Of a DNA stretch of 31,406 nucleotides, positions 1-31,406 are shown piece after piece. This stretch comes from a virus. A program made the position numbers and the translations under genes. The stretch lies in the IMG/VR virus record IMGVR_UViG_3300045988_018198. One strand, given 5' to 3'. Each line of letters opens with the position of its first letter. The stretch's first letter is position 1. Below the pieces are notes generated by a model. That model searched no databases, was not told the origin of the DNA, and saw only the letters and a list, made by a program, of their open reading frames with translations.

Positions 1-55
1 AGCCGATCCGTGCGGAGTTCCCGGATGAGCCGATCCGTGCGGAGTCCCCGGAGGA
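1..55. repeat. Exact 55-nt terminal overlap, identical to 31352..31406
   Basis: AGCCGATCCGTGCGGAGTTCCCGGATGAGCCGATCCGTGCGGAGTCCCCGGAGGA is present at both ends. A minus-strand ORF reads in frame across the junction. Confidence 0.95.
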
Positions 56-81
56 TCCGATCTGTGCGGAGTCTTTATTGT
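1..81 (-). repeat. 27-bp in-frame tandem repeat (three units here; four units once joined with 31325..31351)
   Basis: Units of type (A/T)(G/T)CCGATC(C/T)GTGCGG(A/C)GT..CCGGA(T/G)G with 27-nt period; they encode 9-aa repeats GSSG(D/N/Y)(S/A)A(R/Q)I on the minus strand. Confidence 0.85.
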
Positions 82-2963: not shown

Positions 2964-3616
2964 TCTTGCAATAGCCTCCTTTCCAACCCTTCCATGTCGT
3001 ATTTCCTCTCCTCGAAGTTGCTGAACTTCGTCCCTGCCGTTCCTTCCGGCTTATAATCTCCCAGATAATCCAAAAACGGCGTTGAAGCACTCAGGAACGT
3101 TGCGCCCAGCTTGATATACTGCGCTTCCGTGCGCCTTGCCTTGCACTCGGCGGCGTATCTTTTAACTGCTGTCATCAGCTCGTCCTCTGAAAAACCATCG
3201 GCTAAACGCGCCTTATAGCATTTATAAGCCTTAGCCTTCTCTTTTTTTCTCGGGTACGCCTCCCAGAACTCCTCAAAAGCACACGAATATATATTATCTT
3301 TATCTTTTACCTTTTCCTTTACCTTTTCTTTTTCTTTAGGTTCCAGCTTGGTTGCATCTAGGTTAGGTTTGGTTATATCTAGGTTTTGTTTGGTTTTTGG
3401 TCTACCCCCTTTGGTTCCGTTTTCGTATCGCCGGTTATTTGCGTCTATCTGCGGTTTTGCCATACAAAACACGGTTTTTTCTATCCCACTTCCTTCCGGC
3501 TCTATCCCGTCAAGCCCGTAATTAATAATTGACATTGCACAGGCTTTAAATTGATCGGGAGGAAGGTCACGGATAGCGTTTGCAAAACTGCGATAGAATA
3601 CAACGCTGTCTCTCAC
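2960..3616 (-). CDS. Replication-associated protein: DUF6291-like N-domain plus DnaD/replisome-organiser-like C-terminal region
   Basis: FYRSFANAIRDLPPDQF...KPQIDANNRRYENGTKGGRPK and FEEFWEAYPRKKEKAKAYK motifs, recalled from phage replication modules. Confidence 0.55.
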   Translation of the reverse strand: MRDSVVFYRSFANAIRDLPPDQFKACAMSIINYGLDGIEPEGSGIEKTVFCMAKPQIDANNRRYENGTKGGRPKTKQNLDITKPNLDATKLEPKEKEKVKEKVKDKDNIYSCAFEEFWEAYPRKKEKAKAYKCYKARLADGFSEDELMTAVKRYAAECKARRTEAQYIKLGATFLSASTPFLDYLGDYKPEGTAGTKFSNFEERKYDMEGLERRLLQE

Positions 3617-3993
3617 TCTATCACCACCTCCTCTATCACCACCTCTATTCTCGGGTGCTTCCCGTCAATGAAGAAATCATCTCGAAATCCCACAATCTCC
3701 CGCCAGCCGTCATTTTTTAAAACTCTCGATTTAACAAGTGCGTCCTGGATCACCTTTCTCCCAAATGAAGAGATATTATCTAGATCCCGCCTCCGGTCTT
3801 TTTCATACCAGCGATATCGCATATAGACCGGCTTATCTATCTTCACTCGCCTTAGCTGTTCGTGGATAGCGGCTAAGATGATAGCCTCATTCTTTTCTTT
3901 CAGGTTCGCCCCCTTGTATCGGTTCATCCGGCAAGAGGCTATATATTCGTTTAAGCCGCTCAGCCTTCCGTTTATTCTCAACGTATAACGCAC
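3613..3993 (-). CDS. rusA: RusA-family Holliday-junction resolvase
   Basis: GTG start with GGGTGG 7 nt upstream. N-terminus ..INGRLSGLNEYI.. and central RRRDLDNISSFGRKVIQDALV are typical RusA motifs. Confidence 0.75.
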   Translation of the reverse strand: MRYTLRINGRLSGLNEYIASCRMNRYKGANLKEKNEAIILAAIHEQLRRVKIDKPVYMRYRWYEKDRRRDLDNISSFGRKVIQDALVKSRVLKNDGWREIVGFRDDFFIDGKHPRIEVVIEEVVIE

Positions 3994-4285
3994 TGTTCCG
4001 CCACCCTTCGAATGTCTGTTTCATTGCCATCCTTTTCGCCAGGATCGCTCTTGCCCGGTGAAGGTCTTTCGCAATGTATTCCTCAAATGCTTTCTCGTCA
4101 ACCGGGTCTCCCGGGATGGGTCTGAATATGCCCTCGCCCACGTTGATTATGCAGTCCCCGTTGTTATTTGCCTGCTCAATCATCCGCCGCAGAGACCGAT
4201 CGGTGCATTTATTCCACGGTCTGGCGATCGCATTTCTGTGACCGTCCGGGATCCTATTGAAATATTCTTCTGCGCTCTCTTTCAT
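3887..4285 (-). CDS. Hypothetical protein (132 aa from MKESAEEYF)
   Basis: ATG at 4285 with AAAGGAGAG upstream. The track start at 4399 is a TTG with no SD. The 3' end overlaps rusA by 107 nt. Confidence 0.55.
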   Translation of the reverse strand: MKESAEEYFNRIPDGHRNAIARPWNKCTDRSLRRMIEQANNNGDCIINVGEGIFRPIPGDPVDEKAFEEYIAKDLHRARAILAKRMAMKQTFEGWRNSALYVENKRKAERLKRIYSLLPDEPIQGGEPERKE

Positions 4286-4389
4286 TTCTCTCCTTTCTCC
4301 CGCCGCTCCCGTGCGCTTGCGGCGGGCGGGTGTGATACAGATATCGTGCAAAGAGGTTACCGCACGGGATGAATCAAGGTTTTTGGTTT

Positions 4390-4683
4390 CTATAGCCAAG
4401 ACTTTCCAAACTCCGCCCGGAACTCGTCCCGGGTTCCGTAGTGGGATTCGTAATAAGTCTGTGCCATTTGCTTCAAACGGAGATCCAACCCCCGGTTTGG
4501 GTTTTCGTGAACGCTGTCAAGTCCAAACTCATGCAGGTCTACCGCCAGCGGGATCACAAACCCGTATTTCTCGGACAGCTTCCTCCGGCTACCCGGAAAG
4601 ATATGGTGAATGTGGACGTGGCTTGTGCCGGTGAAATAGCAGTGTCGGAGATCATCCGTGAATACGCTATACAGCTTTTTCAT
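4390..4683 (-). CDS. Small His-Me-finger/HNH-like protein of phage recombination modules
   Basis: HVHIHHIFPGSRRKLSEKYGFVIPLAVDLHE..VHEN motif. ATG at 4683 overlaps the upstream stop (ATGA). Confidence 0.45.
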   Translation of the reverse strand: MKKLYSVFTDDLRHCYFTGTSHVHIHHIFPGSRRKLSEKYGFVIPLAVDLHEFGLDSVHENPNRGLDLRLKQMAQTYYESHYGTRDEFRAEFGKSWL

Positions 4684-5255
4684 ATTCTCACCCCATATCT
4701 TTCTTCCAGGATCCGTTTCTCGTCCGGCGTGGCGATCTCCCCATCCGGGATCCCTGCGTCCTTGCACTCCGAGATGATCCCGTCTATCAGCCGTGACATC
4801 TCCGCCGTGTTGTAGGTGCTGGATCCCCGCATGAGGCGGTAGGTTCGATAGGTTACCCCGTCCACGCCCTCCCGCACCTGAGAGGTTGGCTGGAGATGGT
4901 AGGTCTCACTTCTCACAACCTGCCGCTCCGCTTCCTCCGTGTCTGGCACAGTGGCGAAAACACTCTTGTCCCCGATCACCGCCGGGAAGCCGTAAGCAGA
5001 GATCATCCTGTTGTGGATCTCGGCATTTGATACCCGGAGGATCGCCGCCAGCTTGGTGACAAGCGTCCAGTAATAGGCGTTTGCGTCCAAGGATCGCTTT
5101 TTCTTGTATTCGCAAACCCGGATCGTGACCTTCTTCCCGTCCAAGGCTTCCATTGCCTCGTGAGCGTCCTGGTCAACCTGAAAAACCATCCGTTTTTCTT
5201 TGTGGAGCCAGTCCGTCATCAAGCTTTCTATTTTTCCCGTGTACTCAAACATCAT
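4680..5255 (-). CDS. ninB: NinB/Orf-family recombination mediator
   Basis: VTIRVCEYKKKRSLDANAYYWTLV parallels lambda NinB VVTIQERNRSLDQNRKLWACL. C-terminal SSTYNTAEMSRLIDGIISECKDAGI parallels STSRMRVGEFAELLELIQAFG. Confidence 0.65.
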   Translation of the reverse strand: MMFEYTGKIESLMTDWLHKEKRMVFQVDQDAHEAMEALDGKKVTIRVCEYKKKRSLDANAYYWTLVTKLAAILRVSNAEIHNRMISAYGFPAVIGDKSVFATVPDTEEAERQVVRSETYHLQPTSQVREGVDGVTYRTYRLMRGSSTYNTAEMSRLIDGIISECKDAGIPDGEIATPDEKRILEERYGVRI

Positions 5256-5869
5256 TCATCACCGTACCGGCCCTTGATCGCCGTCAGCATTTGCGCCGCT
5301 TCCTTCTCAGTCAGAGTCTCCCAGGTCTTCCCGTTTCCACACACCCATGCGTCCCCGTCAATCATGTGTTGATCGCAAAGCTGTTGAATAGTCTTGATCT
5401 TTGCCTTGGAAGCCAGCTTTTCAAGGCTGGACGGGATACTCGGCTCTTCAAGATCCTCTTCCTTCAGCCAGAGATCGAACCCAAGCCCGGTGTTTATAGC
5501 CACGCACTTAACGAACGCCCGGCACATGGAGTTCCAGACCCGGAACTGGCTCATGCTGTTATCCTTGACTGGATTCAAGCCATTCATGACCGGGGTCTGC
5601 ATTTCATAGACGTTTTCGTCTATGAAAACCCGGATCCGGGTTTCATAACAGCGGTTCTTATTTCCGCTCTTATCCTCAAAGACCTGGTCTGACATGATCA
5701 GGCTGGAGCCGGTCTTTTCGTCCGGGATCGGCTCCCAACGTACAACCTTCGCCCCGTGCTTGTGCAGAAGCTCCACACATCTCGACCAGGGGAGGTATGA
5801 AAGCCCGTCCCGCTTTTTGCAGTAAGGCGATACGTCCACCTTTCGCATTTCCTCATAGCTTTTCAGCAT
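5252..5869 (-). CDS. Rad52-superfamily single-strand annealing protein (Sak3/DUF1071-like)
   Basis: LSYLPWSRCVELL, MQTPVMNGLNPV and RAFVKCVAINTGLGFDLW motifs. ATG at 5869 (MLKSYEE) overlaps the upstream TAA. Confidence 0.7.
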   Translation of the reverse strand: MLKSYEEMRKVDVSPYCKKRDGLSYLPWSRCVELLHKHGAKVVRWEPIPDEKTGSSLIMSDQVFEDKSGNKNRCYETRIRVFIDENVYEMQTPVMNGLNPVKDNSMSQFRVWNSMCRAFVKCVAINTGLGFDLWLKEEDLEEPSIPSSLEKLASKAKIKTIQQLCDQHMIDGDAWVCGNGKTWETLTEKEAAQMLTAIKGRYGDE

Positions 5870-6030
5870 TACAATAACCTCCTTTGGTTTCGAATACACT
5901 CGTCACACCACTCTATGCCGTCTATATCCGTGATCCCGTCCCCTTCGTACAGCGGCTCGCCGCAGATATCGCAGTAAGACGCTGGCTTGGGATCCGGCTT
6001 ATATGCTTTCCACTCGTCATAGTCTTGCAT
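5869..6030 (-). CDS. Small zinc-ribbon protein (53 aa, MQDYDEWKAYKPDPKPASYCDICGEPLYEGDGITDIDGIEWCDECIRNQRRLL)
   Basis: Not in the track (under 60 aa). AGGAGG lies 9 nt upstream of the ATG at 6030; the TAATG junction leads into the next gene. Confidence 0.6.
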   Translation of the reverse strand: MQDYDEWKAYKPDPKPASYCDICGEPLYEGDGITDIDGIEWCDECIRNQRRLL

Positions 6031-6046
6031 TTTCGCCGACCTCCTG

Positions 6047-6235
6047 CTAAAATAACAATGATATTATTTTTTCAATGCCGCCAATCATGATCATGGCGGT
6101 GATCGGGACTGTGACGGGTGCCATCCCGGTATAGATCCCTACAGCGGTTTCCCATGCGTCTGGCAATAACCTCCTTACATTTTTTGCCAGACGCAGGAGA
6201 GCCGCTTTTTTCTTGTTATACCTTATTCTCCTCAT
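6047..6235 (-). CDS. Small basic/hydrophobic (probably membrane) protein, 62 aa
   Basis: Basic N-terminus followed by the hydrophobic stretch GIYTGMAPVTVPITAMIMIGGI. Confidence 0.5.
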   Translation of the reverse strand: MRRIRYNKKKAALLRLAKNVRRLLPDAWETAVGIYTGMAPVTVPITAMIMIGGIEKIISLLF

Positions 6236-6237
6236 AT

Positions 6238-7224
6238 CTACACCACAATCTTTACTTCTGCTCCGCCGTACTGATCTTTCAGTTTCTTAGCGGCTTCTTC
6301 TACGGTGATCTCTACAAGCTCTTCTTGCTTCCAAATACACTCGCCTCTATTTTTTAGAATGTCTTCAATGCTTGTTATTGCGGGCGATGGCAAGCAGATG
6401 TCAATAACGTCAATATCTCTTTCGCACACCCCCTTTAAATCATCATCACGCTCGGATACCCTGATAAAACCACGTTTAAGCAGGATCCGATCTTTTCCAT
6501 CAAATACGCCAACGGTTCCATCTCTTAATTTAACTGTGCAAAACGGTGTTAAGATATCCTTTGGAGTTGCAATTTTAAGAGCTTTAAACGGGAACCAAAA
6601 CCTGCCAACACCTTCCAGCTGGCAAGTATCATCTGTGCATGTATGGAAAATTCTAAAAACTTTCCCGACTGTCCAGTCCATATCTGGAACCCAATTTGCG
6701 CCATTTTCGCTTGCTTTTTGAAAAACCTTCACATAATCGCCTTCTTTAAACTTCATCTCTTTTTTCTCCTCCTTCTTTCGTCTTTCATACTCTTTATATT
6801 CTTTCTCAGTCAGGTATCTATCCCAACATTTCTTGCAAATATCATCGTCATAACACGGAAACTCGCAAAAATAAGGCTGATTAGTATAGATACCAGGTAA
6901 GCTAAACGGACAGCCTTTAACGCCTCCGAGATGATTGTGGTCGATTCTTTCAGGTTCAACCTTTTCCACATACTCCCGGTATGTGATAGCCGGATATAAC
7001 ATATCGTCAGAGTAAATCCAGCCAGATTCTTTTTCTCCTGACAACCTATAGTTTCCTGAATCCGTAAGGTCTTCTATTGTGCAAACATCCCCGCAAGTGC
7101 TCTTCATCATATCCCAAAATGAGCAATTGCAATAAATTCTTAAATCACCGCACGCTCCAAACTCTTCCTTCATGTCATCCCATTCCCGGACACGGACAAG
7201 ATCTCCTACCTTAAATTTTCCCAT
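6238..7224 (-). CDS. First early gene: 328-aa protein with two SH3-like repeats and a Cys cluster; function unknown
   Basis: ATG at 7224 with AAAGGAGG upstream. KFKVGDLVRV...WIYSDDMLYPA is repeated as KFKEGDYVKV...FWFPFKALKIA. Confidence 0.7.
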   Translation of the reverse strand: MGKFKVGDLVRVREWDDMKEEFGACGDLRIYCNCSFWDMMKSTCGDVCTIEDLTDSGNYRLSGEKESGWIYSDDMLYPAITYREYVEKVEPERIDHNHLGGVKGCPFSLPGIYTNQPYFCEFPCYDDDICKKCWDRYLTEKEYKEYERRKKEEKKEMKFKEGDYVKVFQKASENGANWVPDMDWTVGKVFRIFHTCTDDTCQLEGVGRFWFPFKALKIATPKDILTPFCTVKLRDGTVGVFDGKDRILLKRGFIRVSERDDDLKGVCERDIDVIDICLPSPAITSIEDILKNRGECIWKQEELVEITVEEAAKKLKDQYGGAEVKIVV

Positions 7225-7410
7225 GATAACCTCCTTTTTGCTTCTCCTTCCACTTCTCAAACCCGTCCACATCAAACAGGATCGGGCTATTCTTTTTCAG
7301 CGGGTTCATCTTCCAGGCGAACCGCTGACCCCTCGCCCCGGTGCGGCAACACCAAGGCGGCTATTGCGCTTCAAGAACATCAAGAAACGCTCTTTTGAAT
7401 TGACAGAAAT

Positions 7411-7439
7411 ATTATAACATGATTCTTGAAGCCATGCAA
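7411..7439 (-). promoter_or_regulatory. Near-consensus sigma-A early promoter reading leftward
   Basis: The minus strand reads TTGCAT (7439..7434), a 17-nt spacer ending TGT, then TATAAT (7416..7411), i.e. an extended -10. It lies about 180 nt upstream of the first early gene. Confidence 0.75.
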
Positions 7440-7440
7440 T

Positions 7441-7454
7441 CGAACACGTGTTCT
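7441..7454. promoter_or_regulatory. Candidate LexA (Cheo/SOS) box abutting the -35 of the early promoter
   Basis: CGAACACGTGTTCT fits the Gram-positive CGAAC-N4-GTTC(G/T) consensus. It contains the perfect 12-bp palindrome GAACACGTGTTC and ends 1 nt from the -35 hexamer. Confidence 0.5.
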
Positions 7455-7480
7455 TGTATGGCTTTTTAATTCAAAAAATT

Positions 7481-7531
7481 GAGTTAAAAACAGAAAATCG
7501 AGTTAAATCGAGTTAAAAATGAGTTAGGTGG
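7481..7531 (+). repeat. Four helically phased direct repeats GAGTTA(A/G) upstream of and over the integrase RBS
   Basis: GAGTTA starts at 7481, 7500, 7510 and 7521 (spacing 19, 10, 11). The last copy runs into the GGTGGTGAG Shine-Dalgarno of int. Confidence 0.7.
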
Positions 7532-7538
7532 TGAGAAT

Positions 7539-8639
7539 ATGCCGACAAAATATAAGCGGGGATCGAATGGGTATTACAAGACAAACGTCTGGGACGGGAC
7601 ATACAAGGACGGGAAAAAGCACTACATCCAGATCCGATCAAAGAAATCCAGCCGAGATCTGGAGAAGAAGGTTGAGGAATACCGGCAAAAGGTTGAGGAG
7701 CGGAAGAACCTGAAAAAAAGCGAGATCACATTCCTTTCCTACGCCCGCACCTGGCTGGACGTATATAAAGCCGGGGTTGCAGACAACACCCGGGAGATGT
7801 ATGTCAACATCATCGAGAAGCACCTGATCGCCCTGGAGGGAATCCGCCTGCAAGACATTGAGCGGATCCACCTGCAACAGGTGTTGAATAATGCAGACGG
7901 GAAGAAGCCCACGCAGATCAAGATACGCATGACTTTCAAGGAGATCCTGGATTCCGCCGTCTCTGACCGGCTCTTCCCGGCGAATATCGCCGCCGAGATC
8001 ATGGCGAGCGTGGGGCGGATCAAGTACAAGCCGCCAGAAAAACGGGCACTCTACGAGTATGAAAAAGCCGCCCTCTTCCGGGCGGATCTGCGGGAGGATG
8101 ACAAGGTATTCGCTTACATCCTATACGGGTGTGGCTTACGGCTGGGGGAAAATGTGGCGTTGACCGTCTTTGACTTTGACCTCCGCACCCGGGAGATCAA
8201 GGTCTCCAAGGCCCACGCCCTGATCCGGGGCGAAGTGATACAGAAAGACCCAAAGAGCCGCAACGGCTTCCGGGTGGTTCCTATCCCCAGCACCATTTTC
8301 CCGGTGGTGCGGGATTACGTCACCCGGCTCCGTCAGGAAGGAAAGACCTACCTATTTACAATGCAGGACGGGAGACCGCTCACAAAATCAAGCTATGACC
8401 GCAAGTGGAAGCGGATCATCAAGGCAATGCAGGCGGTAAGCAAGGAACCGATCACGAACCTCACCGCCCACATTTTCCGACACAATTATTGCTCAACTCT
8501 TTGCTACCAGGTGCCAAAAATATCCATTAAGCGGATCGCCCAGCTGATGGGTGACACGGAAGCCGTGGTCTTGCAGGTGTATAACCACGTCATGGCAGAC
8601 ATGGAGGACACCCACGGGGCGATAGATAACGCACTCTGA
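7539..8639 (+). CDS. int: Tyrosine site-specific integrase
   Basis: 366 aa; N-terminal SAM-like core-binding region; C-terminal GLRLGE..., HIFRHNYCSTL and VLQVYNHV (R..H-x-x-R..Y catalytic pattern). Lies adjacent to the attP-like region. Confidence 0.9.
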   Translation: MPTKYKRGSNGYYKTNVWDGTYKDGKKHYIQIRSKKSSRDLEKKVEEYRQKVEERKNLKKSEITFLSYARTWLDVYKAGVADNTREMYVNIIEKHLIALEGIRLQDIERIHLQQVLNNADGKKPTQIKIRMTFKEILDSAVSDRLFPANIAAEIMASVGRIKYKPPEKRALYEYEKAALFRADLREDDKVFAYILYGCGLRLGENVALTVFDFDLRTREIKVSKAHALIRGEVIQKDPKSRNGFRVVPIPSTIFPVVRDYVTRLRQEGKTYLFTMQDGRPLTKSSYDRKWKRIIKAMQAVSKEPITNLTAHIFRHNYCSTLCYQVPKISIKRIAQLMGDTEAVVLQVYNHVMADMEDTHGAIDNAL

Positions 8640-8683
8640 AAATGACACGAAAATGACACATTGACACGAAAATGACACAAATA
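8640..8683 (+). repeat. Cluster of AAATGACAC / TTGACAC direct repeats (putative integrase arm-type sites, P arm)
   Basis: TGACACGAAAATGACACA at 8643..8660. TGACACGAAAATGACACAAATA at 8662..8683 is repeated exactly at 8876..8897. Confidence 0.6.
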
Positions 8684-8726
8684 CAATAGTCTACAATAGG
8701 CTACATTTACCCGGAACACCCGGACA

Positions 8727-8766
8727 TAAAAACGGCGGAAACCCTTGAAAATCTTGGATTTCCGCC
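8727..8766 (-). terminator. Intrinsic terminator immediately downstream of the tRNA-like fragment
   Basis: The minus strand has GGCGGAAA (17-nt loop) TTTCCGCC followed by GTTTTTAT. Confidence 0.6.
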
Positions 8767-8778
8767 ACTCTCATTCCA

Positions 8779-8825
8779 TGAGCGTGCGGGGATTCGAACC
8801 CCGGACAACTTGATTAAAAGTCAAG
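8779..8825 (-). other. attP core candidate: 3' 47 nt of a tRNA-Lys(UUU) gene (anticodon arm through discriminator); the 5' half is absent
   Basis: The minus strand reads CTTGA-CTTTTAA-TCAAG (anticodon arm, TTT), TTGTC, CGGGG-TTCGAAT-CCCCG (T arm), CACGCTC-A. Upstream sequence has no D-arm or 5' acceptor strand. Confidence 0.8.
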
Positions 8826-8875
8826 GTATCTGATAGCAGGAAACGCCCAAAAATACGCAGTTTTCCGGAACGCTG

Positions 8876-8897
8876 TGACACGAAAATGACACAAATA
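8876..8897 (+). repeat. Exact second copy of the 22-bp arm repeat (P' side of the core)
   Basis: TGACACGAAAATGACACAAATA is identical to 8662..8683; the two copies bracket the tRNA-like core. Confidence 0.7.
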
Positions 8898-9499: not shown

Positions 9500-10291
9500 T
9501 TATCGCTTATTCACCCATTTCTGGAGTGCCGTGACGGTATTGACGCCCATGTATCCATCCACCTTCACGCCAAGGAGCTTCTGCCACGCCTTGATCGTCT
9601 TGGGCCCCATGAAGCCATCATCCTTCACGCCGACATGATTCTGCATTGCGCCGATCAGATCTGAGCCATTTCCCTGGCCTTTGAAGTCCCAGGAGCCAGA
9701 GTCCGCTCTAAGAAGGTATTTCTTCTGCGCCGGATCCTGATTGGAAACCTCGCCATCAACCGGCGTTCCGAAAATATTCTGAAGTTTCTTGGTGGTTTTT
9801 ACGCCCCACCAGCCGTCCACTTTAAGATCTCCGCTGGAAGTGGTGACAGAAACGCTTCCGCTCGCTCCAGCAATCTCGGAGAATGGGAAGTTTGCACCTG
9901 GACAATCCGTCGAACCAACGTCCTTATGCCGCTGTACCTTGCTGATTCCATACAGGCTTTTTACATAGGCTACCAGCTCTTTCCCCGCACTCTTCTGGGC
10001 GGATCCCATCGTCTCGATCTGGAAGTTGCCCTCAAAACAGATCCCGATACTATCAGAGTTTGCCCCGGAGGCGTGTGCCCCGACATATTTTTCCGGGCGA
10101 AGCCGGTACACGCTTCCATCCTTCCGGACAAGGAAGTGATAGCCAGCACCCGACCATCCTCTCTGCTTGTGCCAACGGTGGATATCTTCTGCACTGCACG
10201 TCTTCGCCGCCGCATGGTGAAGAATCATCCGGTTTGTCTTTTTTCTTACGCTCATGCTTCCGAATTTCAGATCTGTGTCGATGATTTTCAT
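9500..10291 (-). CDS. Endolysin: N-acetylmuramoyl-L-alanine amidase (Amidase_2/PGRP-like) with C-terminal peptidoglycan-binding repeats
   Basis: MILHHAAA..., GYHFLVRKDG, VGAHASGANSDSIGICFEGNF, then repeated DGxxGxxT..AlQ motifs. ATG at 10291 follows the holin stop. Confidence 0.85.
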   Translation of the reverse strand: MKIIDTDLKFGSMSVRKKTNRMILHHAAAKTCSAEDIHRWHKQRGWSGAGYHFLVRKDGSVYRLRPEKYVGAHASGANSDSIGICFEGNFQIETMGSAQKSAGKELVAYVKSLYGISKVQRHKDVGSTDCPGANFPFSEIAGASGSVSVTTSSGDLKVDGWWGVKTTKKLQNIFGTPVDGEVSNQDPAQKKYLLRADSGSWDFKGQGNGSDLIGAMQNHVGVKDDGFMGPKTIKAWQKLLGVKVDGYMGVNTVTALQKWVNKR

Positions 10292-10292
10292 A

Positions 10293-10760
10293 TTATTTTT
10301 CCTCGCTTTCTGCATTTACGATCTTATCTGCCACCTTCAATCCGCTCACTAAAATAGCCGGGACTTTAAACCCTGCTTCTACAAAGTTTTCAAGTATTGA
10401 GCGAATTTCGTTGATTATAAGTGACGCAAGGACGAACCAGCCGAGAAGCGTGGTCACCCCAAGGTCTACCCCGATGGAGTTTCCAATCTCGATAAATACA
10501 GCACCGGCTCCGAAAGCTACCAGCACCATCAACCAGTAGCCCAGCTTTTTCAGGACTCCTTGCCATCCCTTCACGCTATTTTCCTTTCCTGCCAGCCTGC
10601 TTTTCATCCAGCCTGTGATCCAGTCTGCGACATTGAGCAGGATAAACGCTACGAAAAGGAACCAGTGCTCGCCGAGCACGTAAGACAGGACGGCAATGAC
10701 CGCCCCGGTGACGGCGTTATAGCCGTCAATGAAAGATTCTGCGTAGGTCATCTTCTTCAT
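10293..10760 (-). CDS. Holin (TcdE / toxin-secretion / LL-H-like family)
   Basis: 155 aa with multiple TM segments; motifs NVADWITGW, KGWQGVLKKLGYW and SILENFVEAG; immediately upstream of the endolysin. Confidence 0.8.
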   Translation of the reverse strand: MKKMTYAESFIDGYNAVTGAVIAVLSYVLGEHWFLFVAFILLNVADWITGWMKSRLAGKENSVKGWQGVLKKLGYWLMVLVAFGAGAVFIEIGNSIGVDLGVTTLLGWFVLASLIINEIRSILENFVEAGFKVPAILVSGLKVADKIVNAESEEK

Positions 10761-10785: not shown

Positions 10786-10809
10786 TAAAAAAATAAGACC
10801 TTACGGTCT
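10786..10809 (-). terminator. Weak intrinsic terminator between the tail-fibre region and the holin
   Basis: The minus strand has AGACC-GTAA-GGTCT followed by TATTTTTTT; the stem is only 5 bp. Confidence 0.35.
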
Positions 10810-10825: not shown

Positions 10826-11179
10826 TTGATCTCTTTAAAAAATGCGGGTTTGTCTGAGCTAAATAGCAAATTACAAGGACTTTTGGCAGACCCAGAGGAC
10901 ATAGATCTAGCCCTAAATACCTCTGGTTTTACGAGTAACAGTACCTGGGCGCAGAGAGTAGGTAGGCAAGTGACTGTATATCCACAGGTTGTCGGCACCC
11001 CAGTAAAAGGCCGGATGATTGCAAGTGGCTTGCCAGCACCACCCAGACAGATTATCGTAAGAGACGCCACATTTGGTCAGGCGGCGCTTAACACGGCGGG
11101 GCAATTAATTATTTCCAGCGCTGGATCCACATCCTCAACGTATTTTTTCATGCCGTTCACATATTGGGCGGCGGAGTAG
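10826..11179 (+). other. Silent, inverted alternative tail-fibre C-terminal cassette (no ATG or SD of its own)
   Basis: Open frame ..KNAGLSELNSKLQGLL...FTYWAAE* converges on the tail-fibre stop with a 1-nt gap. The only possible start is a TTG without an SD. It begins inside the left inverted repeat. Confidence 0.6.
10840..10869 (+). repeat. Left 30-bp inverted repeat (IR-L) of the candidate invertible segment
   Basis: AAATGCGGGTTTGTCTGAGCTAAATAGCAA compared with the reverse complement of 11542..11571, AAATGCGGGTTTGACAGAACTAAATAGCAA: 27/30 identical. Confidence 0.85.
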
Positions 11180-11180
11180 A

Positions 11181-12548
11181 TCACGCCCATCGTCCTTTGA
11201 GAATGAATCCAGCATTAATATAATCTACCTGGCCTGGATCTGCGTTAGCCGATATATACATACTTAATGTTTTCCCTTGTATATTATTTGCTGTCAGATC
11301 GTATATGCCGCTCGATACAATACTTCCGGAGAAAACCCATCGATCATCCGCCAGTGTTAATTCATCTGGAAGTGTTACGGTAATCATAAAATAATATCGA
11401 TTCGCAGAAGTCGAATGGGTAAAGCTTACTTGGGAAGCATCTGCCCGTCCTGACAGTTCAAATGTTCCGTCATTGTACTTTTTCAGGGTATATGGCCGGG
11501 AAGATATGCCTCCCAAGAGACCACTATACAGCTTATAAGAATTGCTATTTAGTTCTGTCAAACCCGCATTTGTTTCATTGATTGCTGAGACAAGGTCTGT
11601 CTTTTCTTCAGTTGTAAGCGCAGTCAGATTTCCGATCTCCATAGCGCACTCGTTGATCGCCGCTACAAGGCTGGTTTTTGCGGTCGTGACAAGGCTACCC
11701 AAAACCCCGATCATATTATACAGCGCATTGCCTTGTCTTGCGTCCAACACATACCCGTCCGATGTCTGGGTCAGTACGTTGGACACGCCTTTAAATGCGG
11801 CGGTTCCAAGGTCGGAAAACCACTTTGAAATCTTTCCAAAAAGTGTGGCAACCGTATCCCCGGAGGCTACATTCTCCCGGGTGCTCGCCTGCTCAAAGGT
11901 CACCGGCGTGGTGTCGATATCCTCAGCACTGCCGGGATCACCCTTTGGCCCCTGCGGGCCCTGCGCCCCGGTGGGGATCACGAAGTCTAAAACCGGGTTC
12001 TGCGCCGTGCCGGAGTTGGTGACCGAGGCCTGTGAGCCTGGTTCCCCGGTGGTAGTGCTTCCCACGGTCACGGTGCTGGAGAAATCACCCGCTTCCGCCT
12101 TATTTTCAATTTCCTCAGCGGCAGAGTTCGCCGCTTCCGCCGCCGTGTTCGCCGCCTGCGTCGCCTCCTGGAGTTCCTCGAAAAAGCTGGACTCGTTTTT
12201 TGATTCCTCGCTTTCGCCGTCCGTGTAATTCTGCCTCACATTAAGCGGCTGGACGAAAGTAACCAGGTTGTCATCCCCACTCATAACCTGGATCTGGAGC
12301 TTATTGAACCCAACCTCAGCCATCATCTGCGTGGTTACATCCACCGTCACATCATTCCCGGAGATCGTGGCGGCGTTATACACCGCAAGCCCGGACGGCT
12401 TCTGGACGAATACCTGCGCCGTGGCTCCCGCTGGGATCTGGAAGTCCCGGAAATGAAAAATGATCGGGATGGCGTTGGTGTTCTGCACATAGTCAATCGG
12501 GATCTTTACTCCGTCTGCTTTTGTGTAGATATCTCTTTCGATAGCCAT
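11181..12548 (-). CDS. Tail fibre / receptor-binding protein (BppU-like N-domain, short collagen-like GxxGxxGxxG, variable C-terminal head)
   Basis: 455 aa; N-terminus ..IPIDYVQNTNAIPIIFHFRDFQIPAGATAQVFV.. is BppU-like; contains GAQGPQGPKGDPG; sits after Dit and Tal. Confidence 0.8.
   Translation of the reverse strand: MAIERDIYTKADGVKIPIDYVQNTNAIPIIFHFRDFQIPAGATAQVFVQKPSGLAVYNAATISGNDVTVDVTTQMMAEVGFNKLQIQVMSGDDNLVTFVQPLNVRQNYTDGESEESKNESSFFEELQEATQAANTAAEAANSAAEEIENKAEAGDFSSTVTVGSTTTGEPGSQASVTNSGTAQNPVLDFVIPTGAQGPQGPKGDPGSAEDIDTTPVTFEQASTRENVASGDTVATLFGKISKWFSDLGTAAFKGVSNVLTQTSDGYVLDARQGNALYNMIGVLGSLVTTAKTSLVAAINECAMEIGNLTALTTEEKTDLVSAINETNAGLTELNSNSYKLYSGLLGGISSRPYTLKKYNDGTFELSGRADASQVSFTHSTSANRYYFMITVTLPDELTLADDRWVFSGSIVSSGIYDLTANNIQGKTLSMYISANADPGQVDYINAGFILKGRWA
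11542..11571 (-). repeat. Right 30-bp inverted repeat (IR-R) inside the tail-fibre gene
   Basis: See IR-L. The repeat is in the same codon phase (AAT GCG GGT TTG = NAGL) in both ORFs. Confidence 0.85.
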
Positions 12549-12558
12549 GTCTTCCTCC

Positions 12559-14361
12559 TTATGTTTGAATATCTGTTACAAGCCCGCCTTTTACAGTGAT
12601 AGATTTAATGCTTGATCCTATTGCTGTACCGCTAAAAGCGTCTGGAAAGCGTGGCGGGTCATCTGGGGTATCGGAATACCACCTCATGATATCCTCATAA
12701 GATCCACCAGACACCCTGCGTCTTACATAGAAATCGCATCCCTCATCTAAGATGATCGCCAGCCCACCGAGATCTCCTTGCGAGTTTGCCTTTCCAACAG
12801 ACGATATTGAGGCAACACGGTTTCCGGCGTCTGTCCAGTTGTATATCTGAACGGAATTGTTCTTTATTTCAACAGACAAATTTCCGTCATCGTCAATCTG
12901 TGTAAAGTCCCCGGACATTTGCAAATTCCCAGTATCCAGGTTCCAATAGGATCTCCCGGTTTTATCCGCCAAAAGCCCGGTTATTAAAGTATTCGCATAC
13001 CCGCCCTTTGCAGTGAAAGCTGTCGTCCAGTCCCAATCACTCCCGTCCTGCGTCCGGGTGTCGGAAATCTGGAACCCCTGAGTTCCAAGACACATTGCGC
13101 CGTATGTCGGGGAGTCGGGATCTGTGTCCTCGAAGAGGATCGCCCGCACGTCCTGCTTCTGAGCGATATTTTTCTGATATCGAAGCTGGGTGTTGATGGC
13201 GTTTAAAACGCCGGAAACCCGCTCTGCTACCAGGGTGTCCCCCGGGCCTATCACTTTCTGGATCGCCTGGAGGCTTGAAGTGAGCTCGTTGAAATAAGCA
13301 TACTCATATTCTCCGAGCGTGACCGTCTCCACCCGGTTGCGGATACAGTCCCAGGTCATTTTTATCGCTCGGGCTTCCGTCTCAATGTCGAGACGGTAGT
13401 TATAGCAATGCACGGTGTCCCCCAGCGCAACGCTTACCAGGTCTTCCACGTCTTTATATTGATCCGTCTGCTCCAGCGGGATCATGGAAACCTCAATAGT
13501 TACCGCCGGAAGATCCGCCCCGGATTCGTACATCTCTTCGCATTTCTGCGTGAGAGCCGCATTAAGGGCGGTTTGGTCTTCGCAAACGATGATCCCGTTG
13601 TCTTCGTCACCGTCACTTGCGTCCTCCGCAAGCTTCACATCCTCAAAGGTTACCTCTCGGATGTATTTCTTCGCATACTTATCAATATTCTCCGAGTCAA
13701 CCCACGGGGTATCGCCGCTCATGGTTCTGCCGTTGTACGCCACCGGGATGATCCGGGTCACCACATCAGACATATTGACGGAAAAGCTCAACCCGTCCAT
13801 GTTCTTCCCGTATCGGATCTCTGCACCTTTATCGGATCCGATTCTTTCGTTGATGATAACCGTCAGGTTATCATAGAGAATCTCGCCGCCCCACACCTGG
13901 CAGAAGGTCGGGCTGTCCTCGCCGTTGATAGCGTCCATCAGGTTCCGCCTCACAAAGTAAGCGGTTCCGCCGGTTGTGATATCGGAAGATCCCGAATACT
14001 TGCTCCCGGCGGTCATGATATTCAATGCCTGCTGTCCGCTCTGCCCGGTGGGCCGCACATCCATCAGGAAGCAGTCGTCCGCACTATCGAAAAAGATCGG
14101 GTAGGCGGTGATCTGGACGGCAGACTCGGTTTTTTCGCACTTGTCCACCCTGAAAAGCTGGTGATCGCCCTGGAAGGTTGGACAGGAAATAACCGCTTCT
14201 TCCGTCAGGTATTTCCAACGTCCTTCATCGTCCAGCGGGTGGCTCATGGTAAGCTCCCACGCCCCGTTGATCTCGCAAGTGAGAGGGCAGGACGTGGGGA
14301 AAAGCGTCATATCGCCGTTTTTGTCAAAGTTTTCATTGCCTGCTCTGTAGACTTGAATCAT
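12559..14361 (-). CDS. Tail-associated protein Tal (prophage tail endopeptidase-like minor structural protein)
   Basis: 600 aa after Dit. N-terminus MIQVYRAGNENFDKNGDMTLFPTSC.. is typical of siphovirus Tal. ATG at 14361 overlaps the Dit stop. Confidence 0.75.
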   Translation of the reverse strand: MIQVYRAGNENFDKNGDMTLFPTSCPLTCEINGAWELTMSHPLDDEGRWKYLTEEAVISCPTFQGDHQLFRVDKCEKTESAVQITAYPIFFDSADDCFLMDVRPTGQSGQQALNIMTAGSKYSGSSDITTGGTAYFVRRNLMDAINGEDSPTFCQVWGGEILYDNLTVIINERIGSDKGAEIRYGKNMDGLSFSVNMSDVVTRIIPVAYNGRTMSGDTPWVDSENIDKYAKKYIREVTFEDVKLAEDASDGDEDNGIIVCEDQTALNAALTQKCEEMYESGADLPAVTIEVSMIPLEQTDQYKDVEDLVSVALGDTVHCYNYRLDIETEARAIKMTWDCIRNRVETVTLGEYEYAYFNELTSSLQAIQKVIGPGDTLVAERVSGVLNAINTQLRYQKNIAQKQDVRAILFEDTDPDSPTYGAMCLGTQGFQISDTRTQDGSDWDWTTAFTAKGGYANTLITGLLADKTGRSYWNLDTGNLQMSGDFTQIDDDGNLSVEIKNNSVQIYNWTDAGNRVASISSVGKANSQGDLGGLAIILDEGCDFYVRRRVSGGSYEDIMRWYSDTPDDPPRFPDAFSGTAIGSSIKSITVKGGLVTDIQT

Positions 14362-15050
14362 AATTCCCTCCATCTTGGCGTAATATTGACCGCAAACCCA
14401 GCCGAGCCGGTCACGGTATTATCCCCGGGCGGCAACCAGAGCTTTGCATAGTCCCCGGTTGCATCCGTATTTAAGGTTTGCCCGTCATTCTTGTAAGAGA
14501 TCTGCCGGTCAGAGTCTATGACGATCTCCTGGCCAATATTCGCCGTGAACTCGTAGCCGTTTACGGTCAGCGTGCAAAGCCCTTCCCCCGTGATACGGTA
14601 GAGCGGGTGGCAGATGGCTCCGGGATTATATACCGCCCCGGAAGCCAGCACTTCCTTTTCCCCTTCGTCCGAATAGACGTAAGGATCGCATGTGAATTCC
14701 GCAGTAAATCTCCCGATCTTCCGGGAAGCCCGCTCTGTTGACGTGATCTTACAAAAAAGAGCCCGGTAGAAATAACCGGGATCATCGGAGAACCGGAGCT
14801 TTCCGTTTCCGCTCAGCCACTTCTTCGCTTTTCGATACACGCCCGCCCACTCGTCCGGCGGAGCCATGAAGTTCATCTCTACCGGGATCACGATAGGCTC
14901 ATAGAGCCCCTCGGAAATCGTCAGGATCCCGTCACGCCCCGGGACGGTCACTTCTTCGATCCGCTCCTCCGGGGCCGGGATACTTGGTCGGCGAACCGGG
15001 AGCAGGAAATATTCCCCGCCGGAGTGTCCGGCAAACTCAATCTGAAACAT
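14358..15050 (-). CDS. Distal tail protein (Dit)
   Basis: 230 aa directly after the tape measure; ..VTVPGRDGIL..., GKLRFSDDPGYFYRALF and GRFTAEFTCDPY are typical Dit motifs. Confidence 0.75.
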   Translation of the reverse strand: MFQIEFAGHSGGEYFLLPVRRPSIPAPEERIEEVTVPGRDGILTISEGLYEPIVIPVEMNFMAPPDEWAGVYRKAKKWLSGNGKLRFSDDPGYFYRALFCKITSTERASRKIGRFTAEFTCDPYVYSDEGEKEVLASGAVYNPGAICHPLYRITGEGLCTLTVNGYEFTANIGQEIVIDSDRQISYKNDGQTLNTDATGDYAKLWLPPGDNTVTGSAGFAVNITPRWREL

Positions 15051-26342: not shown

Positions 26343-27503
26343 TCAATCACCTTTCTCCATCTCATTCAACTCTTCTATCAGTTCTCTTTCTCTGTCAGAA
26401 AGCTCCCAGACGGCAACCTCTTTCTCGGCGGCGGCTTTCTCGGCGGCGGCTTTCTCGGCGGCGGTATCGGATATCAGGAACGCCCCTCCGTATATTACTT
26501 TTCCATCTTCTTTCTGCGAATCAATGGAGCGAACAAAAACGGCGTTTTTAACTCGTATGTTCGCACCTTTTTTCACCCACTTCCCAAGTCTCGCCGCTGT
26601 AATGACGTTTTCTGGATAGCTATAACTCGGAAGATCTTGTCTTTCTTCTTTGCTCGCTTCGTCAGCTTGTGCTTTCAGGTCTGGAGCAGTTATAATCTTG
26701 AACTCTCCAAGATTTGTTATAAATGAGGTTCCAACAACCGCCCCGTTCTCATATACCACATCGGCTCCGACAACCACATATTTGCACAGTCCCGAGGCAA
26801 TAGAAAACAACGTTGTGTGTTGAGCGAACAAGAAAAACGGGATCTCTCTCTCCATATAAAACCGGCATATTTCCGACAATATGGAAAACGGCGGGTTATC
26901 TATGACAACATCATTTTCGCCATAGTTTTCATTCTGATAATCCCCGCCCGGGTAGAACGGTCTAACGACATTTTTTCCTTCAAGTCCGTACTCTTTTACA
27001 GCCCATTTTTTCACAACCTCATACACCGCCTCCGGGGTGTAACAATCGTCCGTGGTTAATTTTGGCTTGAATTTTTCCTCAAACTCGTTATATTCTTCCG
27101 TCCGCTCTCCTTCTTCGTCTCCCCAGAAGTGGGACGGCTCGCCGATGTCGAAACCAAATTCTTCCATATCTATGTAGGACATCTTTTCCAGCTCTTCATC
27201 CAGAAGATCAAAGTCCCACTCTGCCATTTCTCCAACCTTATTATCGGCCAGGCGAAAGGCTCGGATCTGTTCCTCTGTGAGATCATCAGCGATAATGCAA
27301 GGGATCTCTTTCATCCCCAGCTTCCTCGCCGCTTTGTACCGGGTGTGGCCAGCTATGATCTCGCCGCTTTTGTCAATCACGGCTGGAACCTTGAAGCCAA
27401 ATTCCTTAATACTGTTCGCCACAGCGTCAACCGCTTTGTCGTTTCGCCTCGGATTGTTTTTGTATGGATGAAGTTCTTCAAGTTTTTTGTAGATTATCTG
27501 CAC
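26343..27503 (-). CDS. ParB-like nuclease domain fused to a putative N6-adenine DNA methyltransferase
   Basis: N-terminal LHPYKNNPRRND...GHTRYKAARKLG is ParB/Srx-like. The central CYTPEAV and VVIDNPPFS resemble MTase motif IV (NPPF). Confidence 0.65.
   Translation of the reverse strand: MQIIYKKLEELHPYKNNPRRNDKAVDAVANSIKEFGFKVPAVIDKSGEIIAGHTRYKAARKLGMKEIPCIIADDLTEEQIRAFRLADNKVGEMAEWDFDLLDEELEKMSYIDMEEFGFDIGEPSHFWGDEEGERTEEYNEFEEKFKPKLTTDDCYTPEAVYEVVKKWAVKEYGLEGKNVVRPFYPGGDYQNENYGENDVVIDNPPFSILSEICRFYMEREIPFFLFAQHTTLFSIASGLCKYVVVGADVVYENGAVVGTSFITNLGEFKIITAPDLKAQADEASKEERQDLPSYSYPENVITAARLGKWVKKGANIRVKNAVFVRSIDSQKEDGKVIYGGAFLISDTAAEKAAAEKAAAEKEVAVWELSDRERELIEELNEMEKGD
26420..26464 (-). repeat. 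Exact 15-bp tandem repeat x3 within the ParB-MTase gene
   Basis: CTTTCTCGGCGGCGG x3 encodes AAEKA-AAEKA-AAEK on the minus strand. Confidence 0.9.
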
Positions 27504-31109: not shown

Positions 31110-31406
31110 CTAATTTACCTCTACAAACTCACCCTTTTCCAGCTTGTAAAATGTATCTTCCTTGATCTTTTCCCCATCTACACGCTCGGTTTTTACACAA
31201 ACCGGCACACATCTTCCTTTTATCTCGTCATATATCCATTCTGAAAGAGTAATCCAGCTTCCTTTCTTTGCTTTTACAGCGGAACCATGACCCGCACAGC
31301 AAATTACAGAATCTTCCCCAGTGCTTCCGATCTGTGCGGCGTACCCGGATGAGCCGATCCGTGCGGAGTTCCCGGATGAGCCGATCCGTGCGGAGTCCCC
31401 GGAGGA
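31110..31406 (-). CDS. C-terminal part of the wrap-around DUF7666-like repeat protein (joins 1..427 through the circular junction)
   Basis: Hand translation gives SSGDSARIGSSGNSARIGSSGYAAQIGSTGEDSVICCAGHGSAVKAKKGSWITLSEWIYDE...GEFVEVN*, with TAG at 31110-31112. Confidence 0.75.
   Translation of the reverse strand, partial: SSGDSARIGSSGNSARIGSSGYAAQIGSTGEDSVICCAGHGSAVKAKKGSWITLSEWIYDEIKGRCVPVCVKTERVDGEKIKEDTFYKLEKGEFVEVN
31325..31406 (-). repeat. 27-bp tandem repeat units at the right end (same array as 1..81)
   Basis: Three successive 27-nt units at 31325, 31352 and 31379. Confidence 0.85.
31352..31406. repeat. Exact 55-nt terminal overlap, identical to 1..55
   Basis: Direct comparison of the window ends. 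Confidence 0.95.

Follow-up and report, generated by a model that had tools for sequence, protein, structure and literature searches.

Can a phage exchange the receptor-binding tip of its tail fibre by inverting a short segment of DNA when its own genome encodes no invertase? The question is raised by IMG/VR virus record IMGVR_UViG_3300045988_018198, a stretch of 31,406 nucleotides (nt) that is referred to here, in its full length, as the window. Within it the 3' part of a tail-fibre gene and a promoter-less open reading frame (ORF) on the other strand face each other tail to tail between two inverted repeats. The window covers a whole phage genome, assembled as a circle of about 31.35 kb; its initial ~55 nt recur at the end. 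The phage is temperate and siphovirus-like, and a gut Clostridia bacterium (Eubacteriales/Lachnospiraceae-type) probably serves as its host. The locus probably represents a two-cassette invertible switch of receptor-binding domains, of the Mu G or Rin kind, that lacks an invertase of its own, and from sequence comparisons we infer that inversion may be ongoing in this phage. Other loci and proteins are designated below by numbers preceded by L and P, respectively.

Inverted repeat and layout of the fibre locus

The original prediction held that the fibre gene and the plus-strand ORF converge stop-to-stop across a 1-nt gap and that the pair is bounded by an inverted repeat matching at 27 of 30 positions (10840-10869 and 11542-11571). 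Both statements are borne out: the single base 11180 lies between the two stops, and the repeat extends to arms of 33 nt (10837-10869 and 11542-11574) that are complementary at 29 of 33 positions (88%). This arm pair is the top inverted repeat of the entire window. When the window was shuffled 20 times, the best 30-nt arm pairs within about 1.5 kb reached only 20-23 matches of 30, all of them exceeded by the real pair; a chance repeat is ruled out by these shuffles and by the genome-wide ranking of inverted repeats. The 14-mer GARCTAAATAGCAA, which forms the inner part of the arm, has two copies in the window, one per arm.

The arms share one codon phase (AAT GCG GGT TTG ..), as had been proposed, and in seven of the nine codons that they share the DNA agrees at every position, the third included, which exceeds what conservation of the peptide alone would need. 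Outside the repeat the two cassettes show no sequence similarity to each other, so that the repeat is a discrete element and not the border of a longer duplication. Residual homology extending through both cassettes, a possibility to be checked from the outset, is thereby ruled out, the boundaries being discrete and no similarity being detectable past the repeat. The junction motifs of the inverted pairs are CTAAATAGCAA and AAATGCGGGTTTG.

Inversion of positions 10870-11541 in silico produces an uninterrupted ORF of 438 amino acids (aa), which is the in-frame alternative fibre that had been anticipated and is matched by two database proteins, P0016 and P0018. Also upheld is the claim that the cassette region is richer in AT than the constant part of the gene, the GC content being 0.42 in the expressed cassette, 0.51 in the silent cassette and 0.55 in the constant part. 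Two details required correction. The peptide NAGLTELNS, placed originally about 127 aa before the fibre stop, actually ends 120 aa before it. Of the two descriptions given to the constant part, 'BppU-like' finds no Pfam support and 'collagen-like' reduces to one short G-X-Y run, the Collagen or Phage_fiber_rpt models being reached by some fibre homologues only. The likely terminator hairpin of the fibre transcript (Table 1) lies outside the invertible segment and would thus serve either orientation. A strong sigma-70-like match (TTGAGA-16-TATAAT, 11 of 12 positions) occurs at 11197-11224 on the plus strand within the expressed cassette, antisense to the fibre gene; its direction would reverse upon inversion, and it may be a chance occurrence in AT-rich DNA.

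The two head cassettes

The plus-strand ORF (10826..11179) encodes 117 aa. Its earliest possible start is a TTG at 10826 and, in agreement with the original prediction, no ATG, Shine-Dalgarno sequence or promoter-like site was found ahead of it by inspection of the sequence and a consensus scan of that strand. From its homologues and its modelled fold, this silent ORF appears to be a fibre head and not a separate gene. The silent cassette has 10 homologues among 5.8 billion clustered proteins, and these align perfectly from ..LN(S/D)KLQGLL onward, the sequence upstream of that point being unrelated or missing. This KLQGLL-type cassette is expressed as the fibre C-terminus in P0003, P0008, P0016 and P0018, the first two of which are complete fibres of 198-199 aa. 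Expression of the plus-strand ORF as a stand-alone gene, which had been named as an outcome to look for, was found in none of the relatives.

Modelled with AlphaFold2, the silent head forms a helix followed by a beta-sandwich with a predicted local distance difference test score (pLDDT) of 90, a confident result in only one of five models. Its top matches in the PDB are receptor-binding proteins, namely that of Listeria phage PSA (6r5w, gp15) and that of the lactococcal phage TP901-1 (2f0c, 3hg0 and 4hep, ORF49), with template-modelling scores of 0.55-0.59 and match probabilities of about 1.0, but E values of only 1.6e-3 to 0.1. The expressed head is likewise modelled as a helix and a beta-sandwich (pLDDT 88.8), with weak matches to the fibre tips of pyocin and gp53. 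The same cassette type recurs in P0125, L003 and L040 (about 84-90% aa identity), where the fibre scaffold is unrelated to that of the window.

Relatives that express the alternative head

A search with the whole fibre returned 569 relatives. Many of these possess a constant part that is 86-94% identical to that of the window and C-termini that differ, joined to it at INETN(A/T)(G/S)LS.L(N/S)S, and at least 14 head types occur on this same junction. Proteins P0016 and P0018, both of 438 aa and both ending in a KLQGLL-type head, are collinear over residues 1-438 with the fibre flipped in silico (87% and 86% identity, respectively). Near-identical fibres thus carry the alternative C-terminus in the expressed position, at the predicted junction, as the original prediction proposed to check.

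The contig that encodes P0016, designated L007 (31,082 nt; ENA sample ERZ24911415), has the same gene order as the window and an integrase that is 98.6% identical. In this syntenic phage the KLQGLL-type head is expressed and an SYKLYSG-type head is silent, stop-to-stop with it, behind a 42-nt repeat. Alignment of the two genomes by blastn places the holin-side flank (96%) and the constant part (87%) in one orientation and both cassette starts in the other, and the segment therefore occupies the opposite arrangement relative to conserved flanks. The cassettes themselves have diverged: aa identity between the KLQGLL-type heads is about 62%, and that between the SYKLYSG-type heads about 55% over the initial 55 aa. 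What recurs in both arrangements is thus a pair of cassette types, and not a stretch of identical DNA that has flipped.

A scan of a genome collection with the silent cassette found no relatives, and the same scan with the constant part found a single match, at 50% identity, in a metagenome-assembled genome of an uncultured Eubacteriales bacterium. Scans of IMG/VR and JGI metagenomes produced few close relatives, and the INPHARED phage collection contained no close relative of the fibre.

The same architecture at other loci

Silent partners arranged stop-to-stop with inverted repeats were found at L001, L002, L003/L040, L004, L005, L006, L007, L008, L011, L020, L022 and L039. The architecture is consequently present at 12 or more further loci, distributed across three unrelated constant fibre scaffolds. 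Repeat matches amount to 25/30 in L008/9/10, 18/18 in L020/21, 29/30 in L039 and 19/21 in L011; the repeat of L022 is near-perfect over about 33 nt, and L037/38 has a silent partner and a degenerate repeat. The second scaffold (MELVTGF..) is that of L003/L040, L005, L006 and L001, and the third (MSIPNLP..) that of L002 and L004. A core, (C)TAAAT(A/G)(G/A)CAA, is found at the arms of the window, L002, L003, L004, L005 and L039, and these loci contain no copy of it outside the arms. Heads that are silent in L007, L020, L037 and L022 are expressed on other fibres at 86-89% identity. The samples of origin include SRR17968127/29/35 for L008-L010, ERZ16268090 for L020, SRR24952740 for L039, and SRR27748182 and ERZ26781157 for L003/L040.

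The most elaborate arrangement is that of L002, where two repeat-bounded segments in tandem (6276-7728) comprise four head cassettes in a shufflon-like layout. All four sites have A-AAT-AGC-AA in common, in one codon phase, and both pairs share AAATAGCAA. The arms of the second pair are identical at 24 of 25 positions even though their outer 15 nt are non-coding, with an in-frame TAA, and the cassettes of that locus termed C and D have access to the constant part solely via the shared 10-nt core AAATAGCAAA.

Several of these loci exhibit peculiarities of their own. L037/L038 (10001-11650) belongs to another backbone of 36.5 kb, in which the tail genes differ and the lysis genes are not followed by an integrase, and its fibre has a constant part 88.5% identical to that of the window, which indicates that the fibre gene itself moves between phage backbones. 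In L001 (5990-6010 and 6363-6744), a 98-kb bacterial contig, a KLQGLL-type head lies in the expressed orientation in the -1 frame relative to a constant ORF of 159 aa. The frame shift falls at a T_TTA_AAA run that may be a slippery heptamer, a homopolymer error or a mutation; its silent partner, of the SYKLYSG type, is interrupted by an in-frame stop, and the contig may hold a decaying prophage. The silent KLQGLL-type cassette of L006 stops in frame four codons early (..FTY*AAE, about 8295-8309). The best INPHARED relative of the second scaffold, and its only relative with a cultured host, is the Clostridium scindens phage phiCs5676-1 (L041, OR574845.1), at 39% identity. This phage has an IS200-like Y1 transposase with a hairpin right after the fibre gene and a 104-aa antisense ORF (5998-7676), and no junction repeat is detectable in the region downstream of its fibre.

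Selection on silent cassettes and mobility of the cassette pair

The ratio of nonsynonymous to synonymous substitution rates (dN/dS) in the KLQGLL family ranges over 0.09-0.22. For the pair in which both copies are silent (window and L005) it is 0.146, on a par with the 0.18-0.20 of expressed pairs; the silent cassettes of the window and L003 differ by one synonymous change in 306 nt. These comparisons argue that silent copies are under purifying selection, at a dN/dS of about 0.15.

The arms within a genome are more alike than either is to the matching arm of other genomes, both arms having GCAGGTTTGTCCGA in L020, GCGTCTTATCCCAATTAAGTAGTAAA in L022 and GGTTTGTCGGAGTT in L011. Such likeness points to concerted evolution of the arms. 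Irrespective of the attached cassette, the fibre side has the T-codon variant and the holin side the S-codon variant in three genomes, those of the window, L007 and L039. Because these codons stay with the flank, the exchange is placed in the inner GA(A/G)CTAAATAGCAA part of the repeat. The pattern of S and T codons is reversed between the arms of L008.

Window positions 10847-11561 have 95.8% DNA identity to L003 and L040, and the homology stops inside both repeat arms. In L003/L040 the cassette pair resides within a 293-aa fibre of the second scaffold, among different neighbouring genes. By this comparison the cassette pair appears to behave as a mobile module.

Search for the recombinase

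The tyrosine integrase is, as the original prediction stated, the only recombinase of the site-specific type in the genome, and the reported lack of a linked invertase holds for the complete circular genome. No serine recombinase was detected by Pfam and PHROG scans of candidate ORFs (in the regulatory and replication genes, the packaging genes and the stretch from fibre to integrase), nor by tblastn with a Mu Gin probe in the whole window or in loci L001-L019. The probe itself was confirmed to match phrog_125, 'DNA invertase' (E 1e-94). These two approaches argue against a serine invertase hidden in the genome. The gix/hix-like half-site TTNTYNNAAACC is absent from the window, and the arms, unlike sites of the gix/hix or lox type, have no internal dyad symmetry, their best dyad (7/12) being equal to the shuffled expectation. 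A recombinase concealed as a gene common to all cassette lineages was also considered and ruled out: when the window ORFs were compared by tblastn with the fetched flanks of the other lineages, the cassettes themselves were the sole common element.

Directly downstream of the integrase gene (int) is an attachment site (attP) in which GAAAATGACAC repeats flank a core, GCGGGGATTCGAACCCCG, at about 8786-8803 that resembles the 3' end of a tRNA; no other copies of GAAAATGACAC exist in the genome, and from the core a tRNA gene is the predicted site of integration. Similarity between the fibre repeat and the DNA flanking int does not exceed chance, and no arm-type repeats occur at the fibre repeat. 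Because the integrase (Int) has a classical attP of its own, unlike the fibre repeat, it is unlikely to be the invertase. Three sources had originally been suggested for the enzyme, namely Int, a host enzyme or something unrecognised; the first is disfavoured by this attP, and a fourth option has to be added to the others, inversion driven by homology through the Sak, NinB and RusA proteins of the phage.

The candidate that we would put forward, tentatively, is a site-specific recombinase acting in trans. Three observations speak for such an enzyme: conservation of the inner core on three unrelated scaffolds and in both pairs of L002, the very short repeats (12-15 nt) of L003 and L005, and the sharp breaks in homology. 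Action in trans is not without precedent, given that Pin and Cin complement gin mutants and that Mpi and RecV act on many distant sites. This mechanism is tentatively ranked above a homology-driven one.

Proposed switch and rival explanations

According to the favoured explanation, the constant part of ~325 aa would end in a helical junction, ..INETNAGL(T/S)ELNS, behind which two unrelated beta-sandwich heads would be placed tail to tail. The sequence coding for this junction would open each cassette, and its copies would form the 30-33-bp inverted repeat. Reciprocal recombination between the arms would flip about 700 bp, the crossover falling most likely in the inner CTAAATAGCAA part, and the 120-aa 'SYKLYSG' head would be replaced in frame by the 103-aa TP901-1-like 'KLQGLL' head, yielding a 438-aa fibre that presumably differs in receptor specificity; in both states the transcript would end at the terminator hairpin outside the segment. 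The catalyst may be a trans-acting site-specific recombinase encoded by the host chromosome or a co-resident prophage.

Several observations weigh against this explanation. The phage has been seen in one orientation, the opposite arrangement coming from its relative L007, where, the cassettes being only 55-62% identical to those of the window, it could stem from exchange of the whole module between phages and not from intramolecular inversion; an exact flipped isoform of any locus is absent among 130 fetched proteins. No candidate for a trans-acting recombinase emerged from the sequences compared, among which there is no host genome. The repeat also varies among loci: L020 possesses only AAATGCAGGTTTGTCCGA and not the CTAAATAGCAA core, further variants occur in L022 and L011, the cores of L008 differ at 3 of 11 positions, and the repeat of L037 is degenerate. 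A variable repeat with no dyad symmetry in its arms fits a requirement for homology at least as well as it fits a fixed recombinase site. The same switch might then be homology-driven, operated by phage Sak, NinB and RusA during replication or by host RecA across repeats of 15-42 bp, with flips of low frequency subsequently amplified by host-range selection. This version is rather unlikely, albeit the strongest of the rivals. It is consistent not only with the variable, dyad-less repeat, including the core-less one of L020, but also with the presence in the phage of Sak, a NinB/Orf-like mediator and RusA; with arms that co-vary within genomes, the identical stretch lying at different parts of the junction in L020, the window and L005; and with the S and T codons swapped between the arms of L008, as if crossovers in the outer part were possible too. 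However, perfect identity extends over merely 12-15 nt in several loci (L003, L005), and this is under the usual minimum for exchange mediated by RecA or annealing proteins. Nor does homology readily explain how cassettes C and D of L002 reach the constant part via a 10-nt core only, or why fibre scaffolds of three unrelated kinds have retained the inner core, and Sak is known from the window phage, not having been shown for the other lineages.

It is also conceivable, if doubtful, that no active switch exists and that the silent cassette simply travels along when modules are exchanged, in either orientation, between co-infecting phages, with intramolecular inversion essentially never occurring. 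A cassette pair that is 96% identical in an unrelated fibre gene and breaks at the repeats would suit this reading, as would the very large pool of heads (at least 14 types) on one junction, the decayed appearance of some loci (L001 and L006 with in-frame stops or a frameshift, L037 with its degenerate repeat) and the missing flipped isoform. Left unexplained by it are the promoter-less inverted partner that stands stop-to-stop at every locus examined, the open silent copies with a dN/dS of about 0.15 and the homogenisation of arms within each genome. A further proposal, that Int doubles as the invertase and the fibre repeats are its secondary sites, is quite improbable. The complete genome has no site-specific recombinase other than Int, a 98.6% identical Int accompanies the same repeat in L007, L020 has an integrase at the corresponding position, and L022 encodes a 60% relative; but the classical attP with its four GAAAATGACAC arm repeats and tRNA 3'-end-like core adjoins int, the fibre repeat has neither arm sites nor above-chance similarity to the int flanks, and the same cassette architecture exists without a nearby integrase in L001, L002 and L037. 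Least probable by far is that the plus-strand ORF is an independent small gene (moron) and the repeat incidental. The TTG that opens the 117-aa ORF could in principle start such a gene, which would nevertheless have no Shine-Dalgarno sequence or promoter-like site upstream on the plus strand; its homologues align perfectly after the repeat, whereas their N-termini ahead of it are unrelated or missing, its domain is a fibre C-terminus wherever it is expressed, and its predicted fold resembles that of a receptor-binding head with a trimerisation-type helix. The homologue N-termini, the fibre-C-terminal expression and the lack of a promoter-like site rule this candidate out.

A broader generalisation is possible, although it is speculative: 'orphan' invertible receptor-binding cassettes may be widespread in gut Clostridia phages. 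Such a phage would hold the substrate only, the enzyme being a recombinase of the host or a co-resident prophage, or else phage Sak, NinB and RusA acting on 15-40-bp repeats; the infected cell would then time the change of host range, and cassette pairs would move as units among unrelated fibre genes via the same sites.

Comparison with known inversion systems

Switching of host range by fibre inversion is textbook knowledge for a few enterobacterial phages that encode their own invertase. The locus resembles the Mu G, P1 C, e14 P and p15B Min segments in that inverted repeats bracket the 3' part of a fibre gene with opposed alternative C-terminal cassettes, and in that inversion fuses, or here would fuse, either cassette in frame to a constant N-terminus, with a change of host range as its established or presumed effect. 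In the Gin, Cin, Pin and Min systems a serine invertase gene is adjacent, and recombination uses 26-bp dyad-symmetric crossover sites, an enhancer and Fis; each orientation also brings its own assembly or chaperone gene. In contrast, the present locus has no serine recombinase by the scans described above, no dyad symmetry in its arms and no second gene in the segment, and it differs further in its probably Gram-positive host and putatively TP901-1-like heads. The R64 shufflon, served by Rci, switches the C-terminal cassettes of an adhesin at short asymmetric sites, and the recombinases Mpi of B. fragilis and RecV of C. difficile are encoded far from the elements that they invert. Such remote, trans-acting invertases provide a model for the mechanism proposed here; these systems differ in that they control pilus or surface genes of plasmids or chromosomes, and not a phage fibre.

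The closest system in its biology is the Rin shufflon of Bifidobacterium and Eggerthella prophages, which has a constant N-terminus of the receptor-binding protein, promoter-less variable C-terminal cassettes and weak similarity to TP901-1 heads (PMC6109161, PMC8778435). Each cassette starts with a short, asymmetric crossover repeat (8-11 bp), and a dedicated arm-less tyrosine invertase adjoins the cassettes (PMC6109161, PMC8778435). Asymmetric crossover sites are known for both Rci and Rin, and Mpi is cited in the same work (PMC6109161). The present loci, too, probably belong to phages of Gram-positive gut bacteria; the silent head of the window may resemble the TP901-1 heads, a short core without dyad symmetry recurs at the arms of several though not all of the loci, and L002 likewise has four cassettes. 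The phage described here differs in having no adjacent tyrosine invertase, only a classical integrase with its own attP, and in the sequences of its repeats, which are unrelated to those of Rin.

The nearest precedent for the missing enzyme is a second inversion in the bifidophages 689b-1 and Bb423phi2, which are integrated at tRNA-Met: about 500 bp containing a small gene and the 3' end of its neighbour are inverted, from one related prophage to the other, at an 8-bp repeat, no recombinase flanks the segment, and an invertase acting in trans was proposed by the authors (PMC6109161). The likeness is one of layout, in a segment bounded by short repeats and lacking a flanking recombinase. That case concerns another phylum, a gene of unknown function and two genomes only; here there are a clear fibre, modelled heads and more than 12 loci with evidence of selection. 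Tail fibres are also among the targets of programmed inversion reported in large surveys (PMC9881135).

No description of this family of Clostridia phages was found in literature searches or among deposited phages. The more recent of the known cases concerns Actinobacteria prophages with a dedicated tyrosine invertase; added here is the same switch logic in uncultured gut Clostridia phages, with a complete genome that has no invertase. New, specifically, are the lack of a cis-encoded invertase and the circulation of cassette pairs among unrelated fibre genes. Should the switch be real, assemblies would freeze one of two states, and host prediction from one assembled fibre would miss half of each phage's specificity. 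Flipping by a trans-acting recombinase or by homology would, moreover, constitute a new control point for phage host range. The junction ..NAGLSELNS.. would offer a naturally modular joint for the engineering of receptor-binding heads.

Genome context

On the minus strand the genes are ordered from the small and large terminase through structural genes, including those for the capsid, the tape measure and the distal tail protein, to Prophage_tail, followed by the 455-aa fibre gene, the holin and then the amidase. The early region beyond the integrase encodes Sak, a NinB/Orf-like protein, RusA and regulators. The coordinates of the features discussed are collected in Table 1.

Table 1. Coordinates of the fibre locus and of related features in the window.
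Feature	Position	Strand	Remarks
RusA, NinB/Orf-like mediator and Sak (homologous-recombination module)	3613..5899	-	Pfam/PHROG
RusA	3613..3993	-	
NinB/Orf-like mediator	4680..5255	-	
Sak single-strand annealing protein	5252..5899	-	
Tyrosine integrase	7539..8639	+	SAM-like N-domain; sole site-specific recombinase of the genome
attP	8638-8892		directly downstream of int; four exact GAAAATGACAC arm-type repeats (8638, 8649, 8668, 8882)
Amidase	9500..10315	-	
Holin	10293..10760	-	
Hairpin and T-run, likely fibre-transcript terminator	10796..10809	-	consensus scan only
Silent-side arm	10837..10869		encodes (K)NAGLSELNS(K)
Silent promoter-less head cassette, 'KLQGLLADPEDIDL..FTYWAAE' type, 103 aa and stop	10870..11179	+	converges stop-to-stop on the fibre gene
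Tail-fibre ORF, 455 aa	11181..12548	-	ORF list; PHROG tail-fibre matches
Expressed head cassette, 'NSYKLYSG..KGRWA' type, 120 aa and stop	11181..11541	-	
Fibre-side arm	11542..11574		encodes (T)NAGLTELNS(N); inner end is the core CTAAATAGCAA
Constant N-terminal fibre part, about aa 1-325, ending ..LVSAINET	11575..12548	-	
Prophage_tail protein gene	12559..14373	-	Pfam; directly precedes the fibre gene

Two further repeats were observed outside the fibre locus. A 27-nt tandem repeat of about 2.7-2.9 copies is present at both ends of the window (1-73 and 31327-31403); the circle of the contig closes within it, so that the copy number there is uncertain. A gene with a ParB_N domain (26343..27503) contains a perfect 15-nt tandem repeat, CTTTCTCGGCGGCGG, in three copies at 26420-26464.

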